Of a DNA stretch of 32,000 nucleotides, positions 1 through 8,508 are shown piece after piece (the stretch's first letter is position 1; every line of letters begins with the position of its first letter). Both the position numbers and the translations under genes were made by a program. The notes below the pieces were generated by a model. It saw nothing but the letters and a program-made list of their open reading frames with translations. It had not been told where the DNA came from and did not search any database. This DNA is from Promethearchaeota archaeon (GTDB lineage: Archaea; Asgardarchaeota; Hermodarchaeia; Hermodarchaeales; Hermodarchaeaceae), in assembly GCA_048938295.1 (NCBI GenBank), contig JBHLMI010000009.1, positions 49,463 through 81,462 on the forward strand, in the 5' to 3' direction.

Positions 1-783
1 GTCAGCCATGGGATTGAACTCATCCGGAGAAATCTGTAAATCTTTACTATCCCAGTTGATAAAGGTCCGAATAATGTGGCCAGGGCGCTTACCTCTTAAA
101 AGTACTCGAGCCCCATAATCAGCGTTGAAAGAAACAAGGAGGGGTACGAAGGTCTTCCCCTCTTTCCTAACTATGACATACACTGGTTCGTAGTCATACC
201 AATGCCGGGGGAATAGCTGGATTGGCCAATAGGCAAAATATTGGATGCAATACACGTCCTTATCCGCTGGGTCATGACTTACACGGTACTTCATCACACA
301 GGTGGGGATTTTTTCTGATGCAAAGATACTCGCGAACAAGCTGTGAACGTAGTTGTGGAATTGAGTGGAGTAGTCGGATCGAAGTCTGTCTCGAATCTTA
401 TCGAGCACCCCATGCATCTCTTTGTCCCAGGGAAGGTCGCTTTCAGGAAGGTCGACACCTAACACAGCGAGTTTTGCGCCAGTTAGATTATTGGGAAATT
501 CGCCAAGACAAAAGAGAAAAAGTGAATCGACAACTCCTGCAAACTCATCACCACGAAACCGTTTCTTCAGGGCCGCGAGCCGTCCTTCTGGTTCAATTAA
601 TTCGAGATTCTTTGCAAGGTCTGTCTGCTCTTCTTTAATGAGCGCAGGGTCTGCGTATAAAGTGGGGCAAAATTGCTGGGCGAGTCGATGTTCCTCATCG
701 GTTGGTGTACGCAAAGCCGGCTTGAATCCAGCCAACGGAAAGGCTTTCTTCCAGCGCGTGGTGATTTGTTCTGCTGATGTCAT
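1..783 (-). CDS. Partial (3'-truncated by window edge) hypothetical protein with a Vps62/NPP1-like H-x-x-D-[WY]-E motif
   Basis: Manual translation: ATG at 783, open for 261 codons to the window edge (MTSAEQITTRWKKAF...LAQQFCPTLY...CIQYFAYWPIQLFPRHWYDYEPVYVIV...FNPMAD). GGAG lies about 9 nt upstream of the ATG. It is absent from the ORF track because no stop falls inside the window. The family resemblance is from recalled motifs only. Confidence 0.8.
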   Translation of the reverse strand, partial: MTSAEQITTRWKKAFPLAGFKPALRTPTDEEHRLAQQFCPTLYADPALIKEEQTDLAKNLELIEPEGRLAALKKRFRGDEFAGVVDSLFLFCLGEFPNNLTGAKLAVLGVDLPESDLPWDKEMHGVLDKIRDRLRSDYSTQFHNYVHSLFASIFASEKIPTCVMKYRVSHDPADKDVYCIQYFAYWPIQLFPRHWYDYEPVYVIVRKEGKTFVPLLVSFNADYGARVLLRGKRPGHIIRTFINWDSKDLQISPDEFNPMAD

Positions 784-921: not shown

Positions 922-3294
922 CTATTCGGAACGGATAACCCGTCCATTTGCCATGCGGTATTGATGTTCGGATGCCGAGAGCACGGCCGTTTGATGGCTG
1001 ACTACGATAATCTGTTGGAAGGTTCGTGAAAGTTCATCCTGTAAGAGCCGAATGATGTTGTCCCGTCGTTCTATGTCCGACCCGCCAAAGGGCTCATCAA
1101 GGAGCAGAAACTGAGGGGCCGTTCCCCGCCCTTGCGGGAGGAGAGCTATGGCAAACCCGAGACGTAATGCAAGGAGAAACTGATCCTCGGTTCCGCCACT
1201 ATAGAGATTAGCCCCTACATATTCTCCGGCTTCAGATGAATACACTTTGAGACTATAGTCCTCACTCAGTTTTGGAAACCGGTATTTCCCGTCGGTAATC
1301 GTCGCCAGTAGCCTTTCCATAACGTTTACAACGCGCGGCCGGACTTGTTCACGACCACGCTCGGCGACTTCACGGAGGAATTCGATGATGAACTCACCGG
1401 TTTTGATGTCTTCTTCGAGTTTGGCAACTTCGCGTTCTTTTAGCACATACTCGTCAACGACACCTTTGTTCTCCTGGAGAAGTGATTTCAATTCATCCAT
1501 GCGTTCAACAGTCTTTTTTCGTTCAGTTTGCAGTCTTACTTTCTCTTCGCCCATTTTCCTGACTTGGTGGTCTAACTCCTCATAGAGCCCGTCAGAGTAA
1601 TCACCCAATTCTTTAGGTAATGTGGGAAAACTTAGGGAGGATAACTCGTCGGTGAAGGTGACGATTTCAACTTTGGTCTGCTCCAAATCCTCTTCCGCTT
1701 CAGCCATTCCCTTCAGTTGACCCTCAATCGAAGTCAGCTGTTCGGATATCGAATTTACCCCTGCCTTAAGTTCGAATAACTTCTGTTCGACCCTTCGCAC
1801 CACCTGCTGTAAGGCATCCACTTCAGATTCATTGGGTACTTCGATATCTTCGAGAACCGAAGGAGAAAATTGCGTTAGCTGAGCAAACATTCGCTTAGCG
1901 ATGACATCGATTTCTTTGGATATTTTTTCCCTGTTTTGAATGCGATCTTTAAGTTGCATTTGATAGTCTTCCATGACCCGGTACTTTACAACTTGTTCGC
2001 TGAGCGACTCTTCACGCCGCCGGAGTTGATTCAAATCTGGAGCAGTTCCACTGTAAGAGAGAAAGGTCCATGCAAGGTAACCCAAGAAAGGTAGGGCAGC
2101 AACAATGAGAATACCCCCGATAAGGGGATTGAAGAAGATAGATCCAATACCAGCGGCTAGCAGTCCAATGGATGGAACATAGAGTAGAGGAGAGAAAATC
2201 CGTCGTCGACTGGCTTCAGCCTTTTGGCGTTGCACCTTCACTTGCTCGTATTCGACAAGTACTTGCTCCAGGGGTTCGAATCCATCGATTTGCCCTTCTA
2301 ACCGACTGATGAGTTCGGTCACCATTTGCTGTTCATCAATTTTGATTCCGAGTTGATCCGAAGTCTCTTCGATTTTTTGGAATTTTGCCATATCGTCTTT
2401 TAAATAGTCAAGCTGCTGCTGTTGTTTTTTGAGACGTTTTTGCTGGGATTGGAGTTTTGATGCGCTGGCAAGTTGTTTGGTTAATCGTGTCTCAGTCTGT
2501 TTTCGAAAGGTAAGCTCCCGTTGTAACTCGTTTTGTTTGTCGTGTACGTCTTTGTAAGCCCTAACTGCAGCATAGTTCTTCTCGGTTTGTGCTAGTGTCT
2601 GGCTAATCAGTTTTAGTTGTTGTTCGAGTCTGGTTAGCGCTTGCTGTTTGGCTTCTTGCTCTTCGGTTTGCTTTTCAAAATCCTCTTTGCGGTGTCGAAG
2701 CTGTTCGAGGGCTTTTTGCTCGGGTTCAAGTGTTTTCCGAATTGGTCGGAGTTCCAAGGCGAGTTTGTCATCTGCCCGAGAGAAGCATTCCCGACCCATC
2801 ATGGCATTAATGACATGACGGCGTTCCATCTTTGGCATTTGTGCTAAGCGGTCTAGGTCTTTTTGAAGAACGATATTGCTTGCTAGCAAGTCAGCAAGAG
2901 AAATTCCATTGAGGAGAGTGTTAATCTCTTTGTCGACGTTCGTGACTCCGGTGGCGAGCAAGGAGGCTTGACCTGAAGAGTCGATTTTATGTAGCTGAGC
3001 CTGCGAGGGACGTTTTCCGCTGTGAATTTGTCGCGTGATTCGGTATTTTGTTCCATCCAGTTCGAAGATAAGCCGAACAAAGGTTTTTTCGGCATCGTAA
3101 TTAATGAGCCGATCTTTTTGACCCATAGGTGCTTTATGTGTGCGCCCAAAAAAGGCGAACAAAATGGCTTCAAAGATACTTGATTTTCCGGATTCGTTGG
3201 GCCCGCTGATTGCTAGAATCCCTTGGGGAAAGGTAATGTCTACATCCAAATGCTTGAAATCTTGGGTGATAAGCTGACGAAGAATAACCATCAT
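922..3294 (-). CDS. rad50: Rad50/SbcC-type SMC-like ATPase, atypical: no zinc hook, central transmembrane hairpin
   Basis: Walker A GPNESGKSS, Q-loop IVLQKD, long coiled coils, signature YSGGTEDQ, Walker B/D-loop FLLLDEPFGGSD, H-loop VVSHQ. The start overlaps the mre11 stop (TAATG). Confidence 0.92.
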   Translation of the reverse strand: MMVILRQLITQDFKHLDVDITFPQGILAISGPNESGKSSIFEAILFAFFGRTHKAPMGQKDRLINYDAEKTFVRLIFELDGTKYRITRQIHSGKRPSQAQLHKIDSSGQASLLATGVTNVDKEINTLLNGISLADLLASNIVLQKDLDRLAQMPKMERRHVINAMMGRECFSRADDKLALELRPIRKTLEPEQKALEQLRHRKEDFEKQTEEQEAKQQALTRLEQQLKLISQTLAQTEKNYAAVRAYKDVHDKQNELQRELTFRKQTETRLTKQLASASKLQSQQKRLKKQQQQLDYLKDDMAKFQKIEETSDQLGIKIDEQQMVTELISRLEGQIDGFEPLEQVLVEYEQVKVQRQKAEASRRRIFSPLLYVPSIGLLAAGIGSIFFNPLIGGILIVAALPFLGYLAWTFLSYSGTAPDLNQLRRREESLSEQVVKYRVMEDYQMQLKDRIQNREKISKEIDVIAKRMFAQLTQFSPSVLEDIEVPNESEVDALQQVVRRVEQKLFELKAGVNSISEQLTSIEGQLKGMAEAEEDLEQTKVEIVTFTDELSSLSFPTLPKELGDYSDGLYEELDHQVRKMGEEKVRLQTERKKTVERMDELKSLLQENKGVVDEYVLKEREVAKLEEDIKTGEFIIEFLREVAERGREQVRPRVVNVMERLLATITDGKYRFPKLSEDYSLKVYSSEAGEYVGANLYSGGTEDQFLLALRLGFAIALLPQGRGTAPQFLLLDEPFGGSDIERRDNIIRLLQDELSRTFQQIIVVSHQTAVLSASEHQYRMANGRVIRSE

Positions 3295-4457
3295 TACCAG
3301 CCTCCCGACTCTTCAAGCAGCGCAAGTCCGCGTTCAAGGGCGTTTTGTAAGAGCTTCTTTCTCTCAGGATCAGTTTCTTGCTTGATACGTTCGAGGACAT
3401 ACTCACGGTATTCTGTGTTGGGTGGTTTCAAGTCCGCTTCAGGGACTTGATAATCGGGATCCGGACTGATATACTCCAGATCGTCGATAATTTCTGTTGA
3501 AAAGCACTTTGCGAAGCCATGTCGAACAACTTCAGCCCTTCGATATTGTTCTGCCGACTTGATTGTCATAACCCCCTTTAGGCGGAAGCGGAGAATAAGC
3601 TGGGGATTACGGAGACGAGTTATCTCTTTGGTGAGTATTTGGTTGATGTTTGCATCCTTTGGAATAGTAACGTTGATGGTTTTCATGGGACGAGTGTCGA
3701 TAGGAATCTGCTTGAGTTGTTGAACTCCATCGGTGTTAATTTCCAACCACACAAAGCCCTTCTGGTGTGCTTCTTCGGCAAAGGTAACGTGCTCCGTGCT
3801 TCCTGGAGTGCAAATAGTGGTAGCTTCAACCTGTTGTTTTTGGAATTCGTGATTATGGCCCGCGGCAAGATATGTGAGGTTTCTGGGGACAGATTTGAGG
3901 GGGATATCAGGTTCATGCGGGAAGGTTCCACGTAAGCCTTCCACGTTGTAGTGCGCCAGTAGGATATTCACATCACCCTTCCCAGGTATAGATAACTGCT
4001 GAAGAGGATCTTCAGTGGGAAGTAGGATAGGATTAAAAGAGATTCCCGAGATTTCCACGTCAAGTCCATTGATCGTGATGGTATCGGTGTGGATGACATC
4101 CCATTTTTCAAAGAATTTAACGAACCCAGCGCGAGCATATTCCAGTAAAGGAGCCACGCCATGTCGACGCGCACGTGGGACATCATGATTTCCACTGATA
4201 ATATAGATTGGAATCTGGCTATCGTAGAGTTTTCGGAAGGTTTCCATGACATGGGCTCGGACCGGATTGCGGGGATTTAACCCATCAAATAAGTCTCCAG
4301 AATGGAGTAAGAGATCTGGCTTCTTGTCTAATGCATATCCCATGACTGTATCGAATGCGTTGAGAAAGTCTCTCTTACGTTCATAACGCCTAGCTTGGAA
4401 TTTAATAGCGGGAACATCCAAGTGAGAATCTGAAGTATGCAAGATTCTAATTGACAC
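3294..4457 (-). CDS. mre11: Mre11/SbcD-family metallophosphoesterase nuclease
   Basis: Phosphoesterase motifs SDSH, GDLFD, GNHD, LAHY and GHNH, plus a helical C-terminal tail. GTG start; directly upstream of rad50. Confidence 0.95.
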   Translation of the reverse strand: MSIRILHTSDSHLDVPAIKFQARRYERKRDFLNAFDTVMGYALDKKPDLLLHSGDLFDGLNPRNPVRAHVMETFRKLYDSQIPIYIISGNHDVPRARRHGVAPLLEYARAGFVKFFEKWDVIHTDTITINGLDVEISGISFNPILLPTEDPLQQLSIPGKGDVNILLAHYNVEGLRGTFPHEPDIPLKSVPRNLTYLAAGHNHEFQKQQVEATTICTPGSTEHVTFAEEAHQKGFVWLEINTDGVQQLKQIPIDTRPMKTINVTIPKDANINQILTKEITRLRNPQLILRFRLKGVMTIKSAEQYRRAEVVRHGFAKCFSTEIIDDLEYISPDPDYQVPEADLKPPNTEYREYVLERIKQETDPERKKLLQNALERGLALLEESGGW

Positions 4458-4463
4458 AGGTAA

Positions 4464-6092
4464 TCAGACCTCGGAGAAGGATCCGTCGAGCCTCTTCTCT
4501 TCTTTTCGTTCTTTCAAGAGCTTTTGATCGATGCCGACATCCTTTCGTGCCTTTTTAAGGCGTTCAACCACATCAATGTCTGCCCCCCCTTCCTTTGTTA
4601 TCCGGGGTCTCACTTTTATCATAACGGGTGTGCGGGTAATGTCACCAACAACAACGGCTTCTCCAACGTTAAGGCCGGGAAGGTCAGAGATTAAATCCTC
4701 ACTTAATCGCTCAGAGGATTGAGCAATGGCATTTTGATCACGGGGATTGGTGATTTTTAGGACGATTTGACTGTTGCATTGACTGAGGCTGTCGGGATGA
4801 ATACGACCAGGGCGTTGACTGATAAGAAGTAGAAAAACCCCGAACTTGCGACCTTCCTGGGCTATGCGTCGGATGATGTAAGCCGAGTAGGTGTCTTTCT
4901 CAGGAGGAACGAAATTGTGGGCTTCTTCAACTACTAGAAACACCGGATAAGCGAATTCGTCTGTGACGACTGCTTCGAAGACATCGCGGAGAAGGCGACT
5001 GACAATATAATCGGTGCTTCGGTTACTCAGCCCAGAAAGGTCCATTATCGCCGCATGGTAGGGCTTAATGATTTTTCCTAAAGGAACACCACTTCGTGAG
5101 AAGACCCGCAAACGTTTGAGCCGGTGAATATATTTTATAGCATTTCGCGCACCAGCACGGATCTCTTTACTTTCATCCTCATCAACAGCTACAGCGTTTA
5201 GTTCATTTATGATATCATCCATCAGATAGACAACATTGCGGTCATTCAAACGAGTCAAGGCAACCTCAAGGCCTGCCCGAATGACTGTGAAGGATTCACC
5301 GATTCCACAGATGCTGCAGAGTTCTTCAAAATCTAAGTCAGCTAATCGCACCGTATATTCTTCGACATGCCCAATGTCTTTCTTACTGTATCGACCAGTA
5401 CTTTCAGGATTTTGAAACACCGTAACATGGTCAGAAAAGCTGTGTTTGTCCCCTTTTTCAGTTTGACTTAAGAAGACATAATCTGCGTGGGGGTCGATAA
5501 TGATGACCGTTGCACCCCGTTCCATTAATTCTTCTATGAGAACTCCGGTGAGATAGCTCTTCCCGGCCCCAGTCTGGGCTAGGATTGCTACATGTCGCCG
5601 GAAGCCGTTGATACGAATATTGACTGGAATTTGGGGACGGGAAATGAGGTTGCCGATATATAGACTGGCATCGGGAGGGTAGGCGTAAAATTGGGCTAAA
5701 AGGTGATCAGGAGCGATGTAGATGGGATTTCCTGGAGTGACTGCCCTTCGTGGGAGAAGGATTCGGGGAGGCTGACCCTTCTGTGTTGGCACTAGATATC
5801 CAAGAATACGGGCAACACCCCATGTCTTTACATCATCGATGTGAGCTTCTTTGATGCGGGTAATCGCATCGATATCCAAATCACGGCGTAAGGCGAGGCT
5901 CTGTGATATAATGCGTTCGACTTGTGCCAGCACTTGAACCGGTTGTAGCACGCCATTTACAAGTTCTTCGGATTCTACTGTAAGGTACTCAAATTTTGGT
6001 GGATACCTTTTCCGATCGCTAGCGAAGTAGAATTCGGTCGCTTTGGCTTCCTCGACAATATAACCAACTGGGTCTGCATCAGATTTTGGCAA
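4464..6092 (-). CDS. herA: HerA bipolar DNA helicase/translocase (FtsK-HerA family)
   Basis: HAS-barrel-like N-terminus, Walker A AQTGAGKS, Walker B VVEEAHNF, EGRKFG arginine-finger motif and SQRP. TTG start overlaps the nurA end by 14 nt. Confidence 0.95.
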   Translation of the reverse strand: MPKSDADPVGYIVEEAKATEFYFASDRKRYPPKFEYLTVESEELVNGVLQPVQVLAQVERIISQSLALRRDLDIDAITRIKEAHIDDVKTWGVARILGYLVPTQKGQPPRILLPRRAVTPGNPIYIAPDHLLAQFYAYPPDASLYIGNLISRPQIPVNIRINGFRRHVAILAQTGAGKSYLTGVLIEELMERGATVIIIDPHADYVFLSQTEKGDKHSFSDHVTVFQNPESTGRYSKKDIGHVEEYTVRLADLDFEELCSICGIGESFTVIRAGLEVALTRLNDRNVVYLMDDIINELNAVAVDEDESKEIRAGARNAIKYIHRLKRLRVFSRSGVPLGKIIKPYHAAIMDLSGLSNRSTDYIVSRLLRDVFEAVVTDEFAYPVFLVVEEAHNFVPPEKDTYSAYIIRRIAQEGRKFGVFLLLISQRPGRIHPDSLSQCNSQIVLKITNPRDQNAIAQSSERLSEDLISDLPGLNVGEAVVVGDITRTPVMIKVRPRITKEGGADIDVVERLKKARKDVGIDQKLLKERKEEKRLDGSFSEV

Positions 6093-7422
6093 GGCGAATC
6101 CTCCTGTCTCGGCGTTTTGGTATTAATGGAATTTTCAGCTCTTTCTCTATTAAGGGTTCATATAATGTTCGCACATCCTGCATGGGAAGACGAGCCTGTT
6201 GGTCTGCTTTGACTAAATAGACATTGTACAGCTCTAATCCACCATATTGACCCAACAAAATACCTAAAACGTCGGTGACACGGGTTGGTGGAGGGTCAAG
6301 CAGGCGTGAGGAGGTTATTTGCGATAACCGCGTAGGGAGCCCAACATTGAAGGCCGGCATGTCGATTCGCATTGGAGTATCGTTGTGCCTTAGTTTTGCA
6401 CAAAAGGTCACGAATGTGGGAATCTGGAAGAACTCTTTCATAACTGGAATTGCCCAGTTTTCGAAATCTTCTTCCTTTTCATAGTCGTTGTAGGCGTTAG
6501 CAAAGCGTCGCTGAACATAGGCGGCAGGGTCCTTGGATTCGTATTTGAAGAGGGGTACATCGGGGAAAGGTTCAATCGGGGTCGTATAACCGGCGGTTTC
6601 TGTCCAGGCATGAATGAGAGAAAAGTCGGGTCTGGGTCGGCGCAGCTCATATAATAGGTCCCAGAGCAGATCATATTGGTCACTACTAATTGGTAGGGTT
6701 TTGAGGATGCTGCGGGCAGAAACGGACTGTTTCTTCTCGGTATCAAGCACTTGAGTTAGTTGATCTAATTCGTGGTTTGAAAGTGCTGGGCTGAGATCCG
6801 TGAGGATTTCAGTCTTGAGTGATTCAAGAAGGAGTCTCGTCATGTGGCGAGCCACTGAATCTTTGCTGATGCCTAGGAGTAGGATCTTGCGTTTACGACA
6901 TATTTCGATGAGCTGCATAAAGGTCTCCAGATAACGCAGGTAAAGATCCCGTTCGCCTGGGTAGTTGAATTCGATGGGAACGTGAGTGATGCGGCCATAT
7001 AACGAACCGTCTATCAAAAGCACGTCTACATCAGATGCTTCCGTTACGGCTTCAAGAGCCACCTGATGTTCGATATGTTCTGATCGTATGCTGGCTAGGT
7101 CGATGAGTTGTTCTCTGGGAGAAGCGATCATATGCGCGTTTGATGAAATCCGTCGATGTGTAGGTCCCCATGAAGTGATCGCGCATGCTCGGCAAATATA
7201 CATGAAGGAACCGGGTGCGTACTCTTGGGTTGATCGACCACTATCCACTGCTATGACGCGGAGATCCGGTTTGGTTTCATCAGGAAGGTTTCGCCATTCT
7301 TTCTGAAAGGCGGTTTTCAGAAGCCTATCGAGACTTGTGGATTCTTCGCCGGTGAGTCGACGACGAAGCGCATCTCTATTTTCCTGTATCTCATGGAGGA
7401 ATAGATCTAGAAAATGTGGCAT
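6079..7422 (-). CDS. nurA: NurA 5'-3' nuclease
   Basis: RNase H-like acidic motifs IAVDSG, LLIDGSL and LLGISKDS; operonic with herA, mre11 and rad50. Confidence 0.9.
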   Translation of the reverse strand: MPHFLDLFLHEIQENRDALRRRLTGEESTSLDRLLKTAFQKEWRNLPDETKPDLRVIAVDSGRSTQEYAPGSFMYICRACAITSWGPTHRRISSNAHMIASPREQLIDLASIRSEHIEHQVALEAVTEASDVDVLLIDGSLYGRITHVPIEFNYPGERDLYLRYLETFMQLIEICRKRKILLLGISKDSVARHMTRLLLESLKTEILTDLSPALSNHELDQLTQVLDTEKKQSVSARSILKTLPISSDQYDLLWDLLYELRRPRPDFSLIHAWTETAGYTTPIEPFPDVPLFKYESKDPAAYVQRRFANAYNDYEKEEDFENWAIPVMKEFFQIPTFVTFCAKLRHNDTPMRIDMPAFNVGLPTRLSQITSSRLLDPPPTRVTDVLGILLGQYGGLELYNVYLVKADQQARLPMQDVRTLYEPLIEKELKIPLIPKRRDRRIRLAKI

Positions 7423-7468
7423 AGCACCATCGCCCTGCTGTATGCCTCAAAGAAGCTGGATTTACGCC

Positions 7469-7474
7469 TTTAAA
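7469..7474 (-). promoter_or_regulatory. Candidate archaeal TATA box for the nurA-herA-mre11-rad50 operon
   Basis: TTTAAA about 47 nt upstream of the nurA ATG, with a GGTG ribosome-site-like motif just before the ATG. Position and sequence are the only support. Confidence 0.35.
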
Positions 7475-7558
7475 CATAACCCCCGCACTCTGATAAGTTA
7501 ACTAAACCAATCACCACTTCTTCTACATGAAACACAAATTTTCCCTAGTAAAGCTTTA

Positions 7559-8002
7559 TTGGATACTACAACGAAAGGCAGGCATAATCAGCAAAAATCG
7601 GTGACCCGCATATTGCAAATTGGTCTGTTAATTCTACTCGTTGGAGAACTCGCTCTAGCGTTCGTTTTACGAGTCATTACATTATTCGTCGCCCTATACT
7701 TTGCGAGCCGGATTGTAACCGATCGGAGAATGACTCTGAAAGCGGCTTTCCTCGGAGCCCTCACCATATCAATTGTCTATGAAATATGCTGGGTTACTTT
7801 CTACTTTGTCAACCCTGCCTTTTCTGATTGGATCGCCCTAATCTTTTCATCAGTGGTACTCTTGGGTTTACTACTTAGATACTATGATTTAGGACTTTTC
7901 AGTAGCATTGCGTTGGTTATGCTTTTCATCGGCATATTGTTTACAATTATCGCATTTCGAACAGCAATTATTTACCTGTTCTTTCTCCCCCTTCCAAGCT
8001 AG
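7559..8002 (+). CDS. Small multi-pass membrane protein (paralog of 8089-8508); start uncertain
   Basis: About four hydrophobic helices. ALYFASRIV and LLLRYYDLG resemble LWLAGKVV and LIMHFFDTG of the next gene. TTG start is weak. Confidence 0.7.
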   Translation: MDTTTKGRHNQQKSVTRILQIGLLILLVGELALAFVLRVITLFVALYFASRIVTDRRMTLKAAFLGALTISIVYEICWVTFYFVNPAFSDWIALIFSSVVLLGLLLRYYDLGLFSSIALVMLFIGILFTIIAFRTAIIYLFFLPLPS

Positions 8003-8088
8003 CCTGCGTCCAATATGAATTTCAACTAAACTATAAATGGTAGAAGTAAGTATCAGAATACACTCACTAACATTGGTGATTCTAACTA

Positions 8089-8508
8089 ATGCAAATAGTA
8101 GAATTGATTGTTGAAGGAATTATCTTCCTAATCCTCTGGCTTTTTGGTTCACTAATCCTTTGGCTAGCAGGAAAAGTCGTGTCTGGTTACAATGCTAAAT
8201 TCACAGATGCACTGATAATTTCACTACTGGGAACCATCATCTCTCGAGTTTTTAACTGGGTTATGGTAACATTCGTATCTTCATACCTTCTTTCTCTCGG
8301 ACTTATAGGGGCCATTCTAGTAATTCTTATTCCACTAATCATTGTCCTTATAGTGTACATCGTGCTAATCATGCACTTCTTCGACACAGGATTTCTCGGT
8401 GCCTTAGCGGTAGGAATACTCTACGTCATCTTCATGGTTATCATTCTAATCATTCTCGGGATTTTCATTGGCGTCTTAATCTTGCTGTTGTTGGTTCTAT
8501 TCCCATAA
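8089..8508 (+). CDS. Small multi-pass membrane protein
   Basis: Almost entirely hydrophobic 139-aa ORF with GGTGA upstream of the ATG and a terminator-like element downstream. Confidence 0.8.
   Translation: MQIVELIVEGIIFLILWLFGSLILWLAGKVVSGYNAKFTDALIISLLGTIISRVFNWVMVTFVSSYLLSLGLIGAILVILIPLIIVLIVYIVLIMHFFDTGFLGALAVGILYVIFMVIILIILGIFIGVLILLLLVLFP

Follow-up and report, generated by a model that had tools for sequence, protein, structure and literature searches.

To our knowledge, every Rad50/SbcC protein is regarded as having, and needing, a zinc hook. Canonical archaeal Rad50 (Methanocaldococcus jannaschii, Pyrococcus furiosus, and Sulfolobus) combines a bipartite ABC head, with its Walker A and B motifs, Q-loop, signature, D-loop, and H-loop, with a long antiparallel coiled coil; its gene adjoins that of Mre11, to which it is translationally coupled, and shares an operon with those of HerA and NurA. 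Canonical herA-mre11-rad50 operons also occur in the phylum considered here: two Asgard loci (L052 in G029 and L053 in G075) have HerA and Mre11 partners and encode a Rad50 of ~700-718 aa that carries a central CPTC hook and no hydrophobic segment (maximum Kyte-Doolittle mean, 0.9-1.3). The nearest published precedent for a Rad50 without a hook is Bacillus subtilis SbcE (YhaN), which is ~960 aa long. It is SbcC/Rad50-like and lacks a CxxC, and its central domain, which is hydrophobic, has a conserved proline, and is insoluble when isolated, is not termed transmembrane in the paper that describes it (Krishnamurthy et al. 2009, PMC2811018). SbcE and its nuclease partner SbcF (YhaO) act in double-strand-break repair and transformation, and SbcE-YFP is seen in mobile foci, polar or on nucleoids, and not as a uniform membrane signal (PMC2811018).

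The Rad50 described here has the same head motifs, coiled coil, and partners as canonical archaeal Rad50, but it has no CxxC, carries a double hydrophobic helix at the apex of the coiled coil, bears the signature SGGTEDQ, and belongs to a separate clade. It shares ~23-27% identity with the canonical Asgard proteins over the N-terminal head, and these fall outside the clade of hairpin-bearing sequences. Its architecture fits that of SbcE as far as the two can be likened from the description in PMC2811018; unlike it, SbcE is bacterial, longer, and paired with a nuclease only, without NurA-HerA. The gene lies in a 32,000-nt stretch of DNA (the window) from an Asgard MAG of 66 contigs that is 91.6% complete, as the last of four adjacent, co-oriented, and coupled genes:

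6079..7422, minus strand: nurA, 447 aa, the operon's first gene, overlapping herA by 14 nt
4464..6092, minus strand: herA, 542 aa, a hexameric FtsK/HerA-type translocase
3294..4457, minus strand: mre11, a 387-aa nuclease whose stop codon overlaps the rad50 start (TAATG)
922..3294, minus strand: rad50, 790 aa, the operon's last gene, hookless and with a hydrophobic hairpin at the apex

Only 6 nt separate herA from mre11. The gene order nurA-herA-mre11-rad50 differs from the canonical archaeal order, herA-mre11-rad50-nurA. NurA matches the Pfam family NurA (PF09376; 67.5 bits). HerA matches DUF87/HerA (135 bits), has the Walker B motif FLVVEEA, and scores 226 bits against the NCBIfam model helicase_HerA, which is below that model's equivalog cut-off. 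Mre11 matches Metallophos (65 bits), finds archaeal Mre11 as its top NCBIfam and PDB matches, and contains all five nuclease motifs (DSH, GDLFD, GNHD, LAH, and GHNH). A first-pass annotation of this DNA had proposed a complete NurA-HerA-Mre11-Rad50 set, and the four genes with their intact catalytic motifs bear this out. The surrounding genes (methyltransferase, radical SAM, VIT, PHP, and KaiC-like) are of housekeeping type, and no defence-island or mobile-element signal was seen among them. A scan of the operon for sigma-70 promoters and terminators found no more than expected from shuffled sequence, the sigma-70 model being inapplicable to archaea. The sequencing runs listed as carrying the stretch are sediment and soil metagenome DNA runs, with no RNA runs among them.

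The assignment of the last gene to Rad50 rests on models, motifs, and fold. The protein matches Pfam AAA_23 (73.5 bits), with further matches to SMC_N and SbcC_Walker_B; its top NCBIfam models are archaeal Rad50, and its top PDB matches by sequence and by fold are Rad50 (M. jannaschii, T. maritima, P. furiosus, and C. thermophilum). Its best score against the NCBIfam equivalog NF003034 is 126 bits, far below the cut-off of 700, so we regard it as a divergent relative rather than an equivalog. The ATPase motifs are invariant in an alignment of 46 sequences:

3181..3204, minus strand: Walker A, GPNESGKS, aa 31-38, with G31, N33, E34, G36, K37, and S38 invariant
1180..1200, minus strand: ABC signature, SGGTEDQ, aa 699-705, with S699, G700, G701, T702, D704, and Q705 invariant
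1075..1110, minus strand: Walker B and D-loop, FLLLDEPFGGSD, aa 729-740, with invariant columns F729...D740

Q144, the FLLLDEP segment (729-735), D740, and the H-loop histidine, His767, are likewise invariant in the 46 relatives. An AlphaFold2 model (mean pLDDT, 82) shows two long helical arms, residues 169-364 and 390-666, which reverse direction at 387-389, and a Foldseek search returned Rad50 of 7zr1, 3av0, and 3qf7 as the best matches, with TM-scores of ~0.7 for the head. The protein thus has the ABC half-domains, the antiparallel coiled coil, and the adjacent Mre11 of a Rad50/SbcC, and it lacks the CxxC hook and an equivalog-level score. Its match to Pfam PF13514 (AAA_27), at 18.6-25.6 bits, does not discriminate for YhaN membership, because this model also finds matches in 14 of 14 control genomes. 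The PADLOC model of Lamassu LmuB scores 91 bits over the whole Rad50 length; the two have the generic features of an SMC/Rad50-like protein, head and coiled coil, in common, and the weaker fold matches include Lamassu structures. Rad50 models and structures score higher, and no Lamassu partner gene is present at the locus, where the neighbors are Mre11, HerA, and NurA. Assignment to a defence system through PADLOC was rejected, since the matches are to generic SMC-like and HerA models only and Mre11 and NurA have none.

The hook is missing and a hydrophobic hairpin takes its position. Rad50 has a single cysteine, C170, in GRECF; there is no CxxC, and the zinc-hook family PF04423 does not match the protein (genome-wide, its best score is 14.9 bits, short of the 24.3 cut-off). 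Residues 366-412, encoded by exactly positions 2059-2199 of the window on the minus strand, lie within the longest run free of D, E, K, and R, which spans 54 residues (366-419) and is centered at 0.50 of the protein length. Given that 30% of Rad50 residues are charged, the chance expectation for such a run is ~4e-6. The features of this region are as follows:

2200..2208, minus strand: arginine cluster R363-R365, before helix 1, a putative cytoplasmic flank read from the sequence
2131..2199, minus strand: hydrophobic helix 1, aa 366-388, with a near-invariant P374 and a G/A/S-rich face (G376, G381, and G383)
2125..2130, minus strand: Asn389-Pro390, a tight and putatively outward-facing turn (AlphaFold2 places the turn at 387-389)
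2059..2127, minus strand: hydrophobic helix 2, aa 390-412, passing without a break into the descending coiled coil
2017..2025, minus strand: arginine cluster R424-R426, after helix 2, a putative cytoplasmic flank read from the sequence

These results agree with the first-pass annotation on the single cysteine and absent CxxC, on an uncharged hydrophobic stretch at the midpoint, and on its division by Asn-Pro between two arginine clusters. We compared the two helices with sequence criteria for integral membrane segments (a 19-residue Kyte-Doolittle mean above 1.6, a helix of at least 18 residues that is non-amphipathic, and the positive-inside rule). Helix 1 averages 1.92 (370-388) and helix 2 averages 2.10 (391-409; up to 2.29), far above the best segment of Rad50 outside the apex; both are non-amphipathic and follow the positive-inside rule. 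On the Eisenberg scale, mean hydrophobicity is 0.68-0.81 and the moment at most 0.12 (helix 1, 0.74/0.12; helix 2, 0.81/0.06), and this low moment means that the helices are greasy all round. The Wimley-White octanol sum of helix 2 is ~-9.5 kcal/mol, and helix 1, which contains two prolines, is marginal on the Hessa biological scale (~+2 kcal/mol). In the AlphaFold2 model the apex is a helix (369-386), a turn (387-389), and a second helix (390-473) running into the descending coiled coil, so that the helix-turn-helix sits exactly at the coiled-coil reversal; confidence there is moderate (pLDDT 58-81). A homodimer prediction for two copies of residues 310-470 with the family alignment scored 0.01, and the tool returned no verdict. 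The first-pass annotation had also read the segment as a hairpin with both ends in the cytoplasm. All the sequence hallmarks of a membrane anchor are indeed present, and from them we infer insertion into the membrane.

The hairpin is shared by a large group of proteins. All 60 full-length near relatives have it (764-791 aa; 25-88% identity), and a central hydrophobic segment is present in 138 of the best 142 full-length cluster representatives drawn from 1.84 billion proteins. A central CxxC occurs in none of the 60 and none of the 142. Database matches to the hairpin-type clade number in the thousands. In seven hook-bearing controls, the longest charge-free run is 12-23 residues and is never central. 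Across 46 aligned relatives (25-88% identity) there is not a single D or E in either helix, and the loop between the helices is uncharged and 1-3 residues long across the family. In 97 relatives, the ten residues of the N-terminal flank contain on average 3.3 K+R versus 0.8 D+E, and the C-terminal flank 2.7 K+R versus 1.0 D+E, with K or R directly after helix 2 in most of them. What is conserved at the apex is hence a property (hydrophobicity and a length of ~2 x 20 residues), not a sequence.

A tree of the head domain, computed with the apex columns omitted, places the hairpin-bearing sequences in one clade (UFboot 99, SH-aLRT 97, and 98% of bootstrap trees), with 28 hairpin-bearing sequences inside and 11 hook-bearing and 2 SMC sequences outside; B. 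subtilis YhaN is absent from this tree. Members of the clade come from Thermoproteota and several bacterial phyla as well as from Asgard archaea. The bacterial relatives found in a scan belong to Chloroflexota, Dictyoglomota, Armatimonadota, Nitrospirota, and Gammaproteobacteria, and none of them to Bacillota. Two suggestions of the first-pass annotation have to be revised in this light. First, no hook gave way to a hairpin in this lineage; the protein belongs to an old, large, and monophyletic hookless clade. Second, the pairing with NurA-HerA is not unusual: linkage of the hairpin clade to NurA-HerA is common in archaea, and the combination is therefore not unique to this genome. The order nurA-herA-mre11-rad50 with a hairpin Rad50 recurs, at ~30% identity, in three other Asgard genomes, a Thermofilaceae MAG, and an unclassified archaeal MAG (G029, G034, G142, L068, and L071). 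In the literature on transmembrane or zinc-hook Rad50 in archaea, on Asgard MR-HerA-NurA, and on hookless or membrane-anchored SMC-like proteins, we found no description of a membrane-hairpin Rad50, and a 2026 review of NurA that includes Asgard homologs makes no mention of membranes. The hookless hairpin clade is apparently undescribed so far.

The hairpin gene is a sole copy. By phmmer and family searches, the 91.6%-complete genome contains no second Rad50, Mre11, or NurA. The first-pass annotation had proposed a check for a hook-bearing Rad50 in the same genome, and searches with Rad50 queries and PF04423 found none. Two further ORFs were considered as a second Rad50 and rejected: a 979-aa SMC-like ORF (contig C16) has no CxxC, is not matched by Rad50 queries, and has no adjoining Mre11, and a 1195-aa ORF (C39) matches SMC. 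Of the 18 other genomes of the family, 17 likewise yielded no Rad50 besides the hairpin-type gene; these MAGs are 72-92% complete, and a housekeeping reading leans on absence in them. When the same 18 genomes were searched with a canonical Asgard Rad50, the hairpin gene alone was matched in 16, and one genome gave no match, yet its hairpin gene was found separately. One family genome (G043) encodes an extra 942-aa hook Rad50 besides the hairpin type. Rad50 proteins are 59-88% identical to this one within the genus and 47-49% identical in the sister genus, with the downstream gene conserved as well; judged by sequence, the locus looks vertically inherited within the family. Asgard genomes beyond this family carry the hairpin type only here and there, and in one of them (G029) the hairpin operon coexists with a canonical herA-mre11-rad50 (CPTC) operon. 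The extra hook Rad50 of G043 and the presence of both systems in G029 suggest that the two types are not simply interchangeable.

We consider it reasonably probable, taking the reading as a whole, that this protein is a functional Rad50 ATPase of a hookless clade, that its apex is a transmembrane hairpin, and that it works in a membrane-tied, general break-resection machine. The hairpin probably tethers the machine made of NurA, HerA, Mre11, and Rad50 to the cell membrane, a call based on hydrophobicity scales, charge distribution, and conservation. In the proposed mechanism, Rad50 would be translated together with Mre11, HerA, and NurA, and its hairpin would insert as two ~20-residue transmembrane helices joined by an outward turn of 1-3 residues, with both ends cytoplasmic. 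The Mre11-Rad50 nuclease head would then sit ~25-30 nm under the cytoplasmic membrane on a ~195-residue antiparallel coiled coil. Two hairpins may pair side by side in the bilayer via their small-residue (G/A/S) faces, and this pairing would close the Rad50 ring at its apex, as the Zn(Cys)4 hook does for canonical Rad50. The complex would clamp and nick DNA ends and hand them to HerA-NurA, which would resect them 5'-3' at the membrane. Because neither this genome nor 17 of the 18 others of the family yielded a hook Rad50, the complex most likely serves the lineage as its general machine for double-strand-break resection and not as an accessory system. The strongest form of this proposal is possible but doubtful: that the family's only Mre11-Rad50 is an integral membrane machine whose transmembrane hairpins pair as the apex lock, with all capture and tethering of double-strand-break ends, and their resection by NurA-HerA, taking place on the membrane's inner face.

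The anchor could instead serve a specialized job, processing DNA at the envelope (uptake or exchange, or viral or plasmid DNA) rather than repairing breaks in general. B. subtilis SbcE/SbcF offers a precedent: it collects at the competence pole, and without it transformation falls 20-fold (PMC2811018). The patchy distribution of the hairpin type among Asgard archaea and its place beside a canonical operon in G029 suggest a non-redundant role, and HerA is FtsK/VirB4-like, with matches to CedD and anti-phage HerA models that are weaker than those to repair HerA. Against these points, the Rad50, Mre11, and NurA of this operon are the only ones found in the genome, and its Rad50 is the only one found in 17 of 18 family relatives. 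Mre11 and NurA have no PADLOC match, and those of Rad50 and HerA are to generic SMC-like and HerA models. The first-pass annotation had raised DNA uptake and defence as roles, for which the housekeeping-type neighbors, the lack of a defence-island or mobile-element signal among them, and apparently vertical inheritance offer no specific support. We regard a dedicated envelope function as rather unlikely, and we keep to the reading of a general resection machine.

Alternatively, the apex might stay outside the membrane, as a greasy self-association module in which four helices from two chains are bundled or clustered in the cytoplasm, and take over from the hook as a dimerizer only. The apex of Rad50 and SMC proteins is always a dimerization site, G/A/S-rich helices favor tight packing, and AlphaFold2 confidence at the apex is moderate; SbcE-YFP foci, moreover, shift quickly between poles and lie on nucleoids (PMC2811018). 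However, soluble bundles are amphipathic, with polar residues outside, whereas these helices are hydrophobic on every face (moment at most 0.12). Over ~40 positions there are almost no polar residues, with no D or E in 46 relatives, and the K/R-enriched flanks around a short uncharged turn form the pattern of a membrane hairpin. The sequence drifts across archaea and bacteria, but hydrophobicity and length are kept, and the isolated central domain of SbcE is insoluble (PMC2811018). A purely soluble apex therefore seems very unlikely to us. An artefact, i.e., a frameshift, a misassembly, or a decaying gene that has lost its CxxC, is scarcely credible: the 790-codon reading frame at 922-3294 (minus strand) is single and intact with all ATPase motifs invariant, proteins of equal length and architecture come from dozens of independent assemblies, the stretch occurs in several sediment metagenome runs, and the ~60 relatives of like length and architecture exclude a frameshift or assembly error.

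A large clade of Rad50 proteins thus never has a zinc hook and carries a membrane-type hairpin at the same position, and in at least one Asgard family this hairpin form is the only Rad50 found. The clade is a natural experiment on what the Rad50 apex requires, namely the locking of two arms, whatever the chemistry. If the strongest form of the proposal is true, the "universal" zinc hook of Rad50 would be dispensable for a whole ancient clade across archaea and bacteria, and processing of breaks at the membrane would be a prokaryotic counterpart of their relocation to the nuclear envelope. If the hairpin lies in the membrane, end resection in these organisms would be spatially restricted to the envelope. 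Ideas on how archaea, the closest relatives of eukaryotes among them, repair their chromosomes, take up DNA, and bring membrane and chromosome into contact would then change.

Four tightly coupled minus-strand genes in the window, nurA, herA, mre11, and rad50, were assigned by profile matches.

6079-7422, minus strand: nurA, NurA by Pfam and NCBIfam
4464-6092, minus strand: herA, HerA (DUF87) by Pfam and NCBIfam
3294-4457, minus strand: mre11, Metallophos; top NCBIfam matches to archaeal Mre11
922-3294, minus strand: rad50, AAA_23, SMC_N, and SbcC_Walker_B; top NCBIfam matches to archaeal Rad50

nurA shares 14 nt with herA, a gap of 6 nt separates herA from mre11, and the start of rad50 overlaps the stop of mre11 (TAATG). 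NCBIfam scores of all operon genes lie well under the equivalog cut-offs. The closest solved structures by sequence are Rad50 and Mre11 of M. jannaschii, T. maritima, and P. furiosus; by fold, they are the C. thermophilum MRN Rad50 and archaeal Rad50 heads. The Mre11 nuclease motifs were all found in the window's Mre11, and the Rad50 ATPase motifs are complete and invariant across the family. As read from its sequence, the operon shows an intact, conserved ATPase-nuclease-helicase-nuclease set. Two small ORFs, at 7559-8002 (plus strand, 147 aa) and 8089-8508 (plus strand, 139 aa), are divergent to the operon at its promoter region, and neither matches a Pfam family.

The first-pass annotation had described Rad50 as hookless, with an Arg-flanked, uncharged hydrophobic stretch at its midpoint split by Asn-Pro, and residue mapping, hydropathy, and the relatives bore this out. 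The 790-aa protein has a single cysteine (C170) and no CxxC, and window positions 2059-2199 encode its residues 366-412. These residues open the longest run free of D, E, K, and R (54 residues, 366-419), which is centered at exactly 0.5 of the protein length; with 30% charged residues overall, charge-free runs of such length are expected by chance at ~4e-6. N389-P390 divides the run, and R363-365 and R424-426 lie on either side. Kyte-Doolittle 19-residue means reach 1.92 and 2.10 in the two halves, both above the classical membrane threshold, and no other segment of Rad50 comes near them. The halves combine a mean hydrophobicity of 0.68-0.81 with a hydrophobic moment of at most 0.12, which indicates that the predicted apex helices are non-amphipathic and hydrophobic on every face, unlike the flanking coiled coil. 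AlphaFold2 (46-sequence alignment, mean pLDDT 82) modeled a helix at 343-364, a break, a helix at 369-386, a turn at 387-389, and a helix at 390-473 that runs straight into the descending arm, with moderate pLDDT at the apex (58-81). The ascending arm (~169-364) corresponds to a coiled coil of ~29 nm, as estimated from helix length. The Rad50 apex shows the sequence properties of a putative transmembrane hairpin.

These properties recur among relatives. A word-indexed search recovered ~65 relatives, the most divergent at 28% identity. All full-length ones have a central double hydrophobic segment and no CxxC, and the few matches with CP.C are distant canonical Rad50/SbcC. Close family members share a conserved motif in the helices, SPLLYIPSIGLL...G, then ...PF..YL. 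At 30% identity, the sequence differs; two ~20-residue hydrophobic helices, a 1-3-residue turn, and K/R flanks are kept. Across 46 aligned relatives, neither helix contains D or E, helix 1 is 34% G/A/S, and P374 is nearly invariant. An exhaustive search of 1.84 billion cluster representatives returned 7,710 matches at E<=1e-3 and 219 at E<=1e-30. A hydrophobic segment at the center is present in 138 of the best 142 full-length representatives, and a central CxxC in none; with the query included (n = 143), the longest charge-free run has a median of 39 residues, centered at 0.49 of the length. Seven hook-bearing controls have charge-free runs of 12-23 residues, central in none. Flanks average 3.3 and 2.7 K+R versus 0.8 and 1.0 D+E (97 relatives whose runs reach 35 residues or more). 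This pattern of runs and flanks is as expected for a membrane hairpin with both ends cytoplasmic, a placement that the two coiled-coil arms would need anyway.

To place the protein independently of its apex, we built a maximum-likelihood tree on the head domains (175 N-terminal and 155 C-terminal residues) of 28 hairpin-type, 11 hook-type, and 2 SMC proteins; two Bathyarchaeota/Crenarchaeota ORFs, in which the stop-to-stop frame hides the start of Walker A, were omitted. A single branch sets all hairpin-type proteins apart from the rest (UFboot 99/SH-aLRT 97; 98% of bootstrap trees). Several hook-type rows are long branches, which makes the branching order of the hook lineages unreliable. The tree places the window's Rad50 in an old hookless clade spanning archaea and bacteria. 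With a single hairpin clade, the hook was not lost in this lineage, contrary to the earlier claim that a hairpin replaced it in this Rad50.

In a sample of 301 genomes from the phylum, an ortholog is present in 18/18 other genomes of the window's family. Identity is 59%-88% within the genus and 47%-49% in the sister genus, a gradient expected for vertical descent. (Submitter labels clash within the genus, as Candidatus Odinarchaeota, Candidatus Thorarchaeota, or Promethearchaeota at loci L064 and L065, and public lineage names are unreliable.) Beyond the family, the hairpin type is found only here and there: full-length in genomes G029, G034, and G142 and fragmentary in G018, G025, and G048. 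The order nurA-herA-mre11-rad50(hairpin) is kept in G029, G034, G142, a Thermofilaceae MAG, and an unclassified archaeal MAG, and mre11-rad50(hairpin) occurs in Bathyarchaeota and Nitrososphaeria MAGs. In bacteria, the protein is typically 640-1,400 aa and occurs in Chloroflexota, Dictyoglomota, Armatimonadota, Nitrospirota, Gammaproteobacteria, and other groups.

A hook-bearing Rad50 alongside the hairpin form, which the first-pass annotation proposed looking for, was not found in the window's assembly (2.52 Mb, 66 contigs, 91.6% complete): PF04423 gave no zinc-hook match above cut-off, and queries with the hairpin Rad50, three hook-bearing Rad50s, the NCBIfam Rad50 model, and PF04423 revealed no second Rad50; besides the hairpin gene, they matched only an SMC and an SMC-like ORF that is unrelated. 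Mre11 and NurA each occur once in the genome. We also searched 19 family genomes with a canonical Asgard Rad50 (CPTC hook, from G029). It matched only the hairpin gene in 16/18 relatives, all genomes being MAGs of 72%-92% completeness, so that a hook Rad50 is not found rather than absent. G096 gave no match with this query, yet its hairpin-type gene was found in the phylum survey, and G043 has an additional 942-aa hook-bearing Rad50. Since the hook query matches only the hairpin gene in most family genomes, the hairpin form fills the Rad50 slot in this family. The extra gene in G043, from the window's own genus (L060, G043:C43:3816-6929), matches the zinc hook just above the Pfam cut-off (25 bits) and is either a retained or acquired canonical gene or bin contamination. 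The two types can coexist: G029, from another family, has a canonical herA-mre11-rad50 with a CPTC hook in a 718-aa frame (L052, G029:C17) as well as a nurA-herA-mre11-rad50(hairpin) operon (L046, G029:C18). G075 and others have canonical forms only.

Other Rad50-like proteins were seen. In G075 (L054, G075:C1:905000-919000; genes 5968-7284 and 7283-8380, minus strand), Mre11 is coupled to a short Rad50-like protein of ~430-445 aa with no CxxC and no hydrophobic segment, which must therefore have a very short coiled coil or none. This protein is common to many genomes of another Asgard family, which also have a canonical hook Rad50 of ~700 aa. The window's genome encodes a 979-aa SMC-like ATPase (contig C16, minus strand, partly L012) with long coiled coils and no CxxC, hydrophobic apex, or adjoining Mre11; it is possibly an SMC-related protein specific to archaea, or a Smc5/6-like one.

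The operon's neighbors encode a methyltransferase, a radical SAM/SPASM enzyme, a VIT-family protein, a PHP phosphoesterase, and KaiC-like proteins, and no mobile-element or defense-island signal was found around it. PADLOC gave only generic SMC-like (LmuB, 91 bits) and HerA matches on the operon and none for Mre11 or NurA. Downstream of rad50, at a distance of 138 nt, lies the gene of a 448-aa protein with no Pfam match (1-783, minus strand); on contig C53, this gene extends upstream beyond the window. It directly follows the operon in G011 and lies ~1 kb off in G114, both of the same family, whereas more distant genomes lack it in the operon flanks.

The sole published analog that we found, B. 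subtilis SbcE/YhaN, resembles the hairpin clade in its described architecture; PF13514 was not usable as its marker. SbcE is SbcC-like, lacks CxxC, and has a novel hydrophobic central domain that is insoluble and carries a conserved proline; the paper does not call this domain transmembrane (PMC2811018). SbcE localizes to the competence pole, and both efficient transformation and break repair involve it, the former requiring it (PMC2811018). Together with the hairpin operon beside a canonical system in G029, this suggests a specialized envelope-linked function, e.g., DNA uptake or defense. Against such a role stand the sole Rad50 copy, vertical inheritance, and housekeeping neighbors, which argue for a general repair role in the window's lineage; the idea of a second, specialized system is contradicted by the hairpin form filling the Rad50 slot in this family.

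We suggest that the hairpin inserts into the cytoplasmic membrane with its turn outside, and that two hairpins might pair in the bilayer, aided by the G/A/S-rich face. Such pairing would close the Rad50 ring and stand in for the Zn(Cys)4 hook of canonical complexes. The Mre11-Rad50 head would then reach ~25-30 nm into the cytoplasm, clamping DNA ends that could be passed to HerA-NurA. A non-membrane hydrophobic bundle at the apex is disfavored by the non-amphipathic helices, the positively charged flanks, and the conservation of hydrophobicity but not sequence. For the membrane-anchored NurA-HerA-Mre11-Rad50 machine proposed earlier, the operon and the hairpin properties hold, and membrane insertion is what we infer from them. 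No account of an archaeal Rad50 with a membrane hairpin turned up in the full-text literature, subscription-only papers aside, and membranes go unmentioned in a 2026 NurA review that includes Asgard homologs. The reading as a Rad50/SbcC-type complex whose apex is a membrane hairpin, here in a NurA-HerA-linked archaeal form that is the only Rad50 found in its lineage, is partly supported. Such a complex would be of moderately high interest, since the zinc hook counts as a universal feature and the hairpin alternative can be tested directly.
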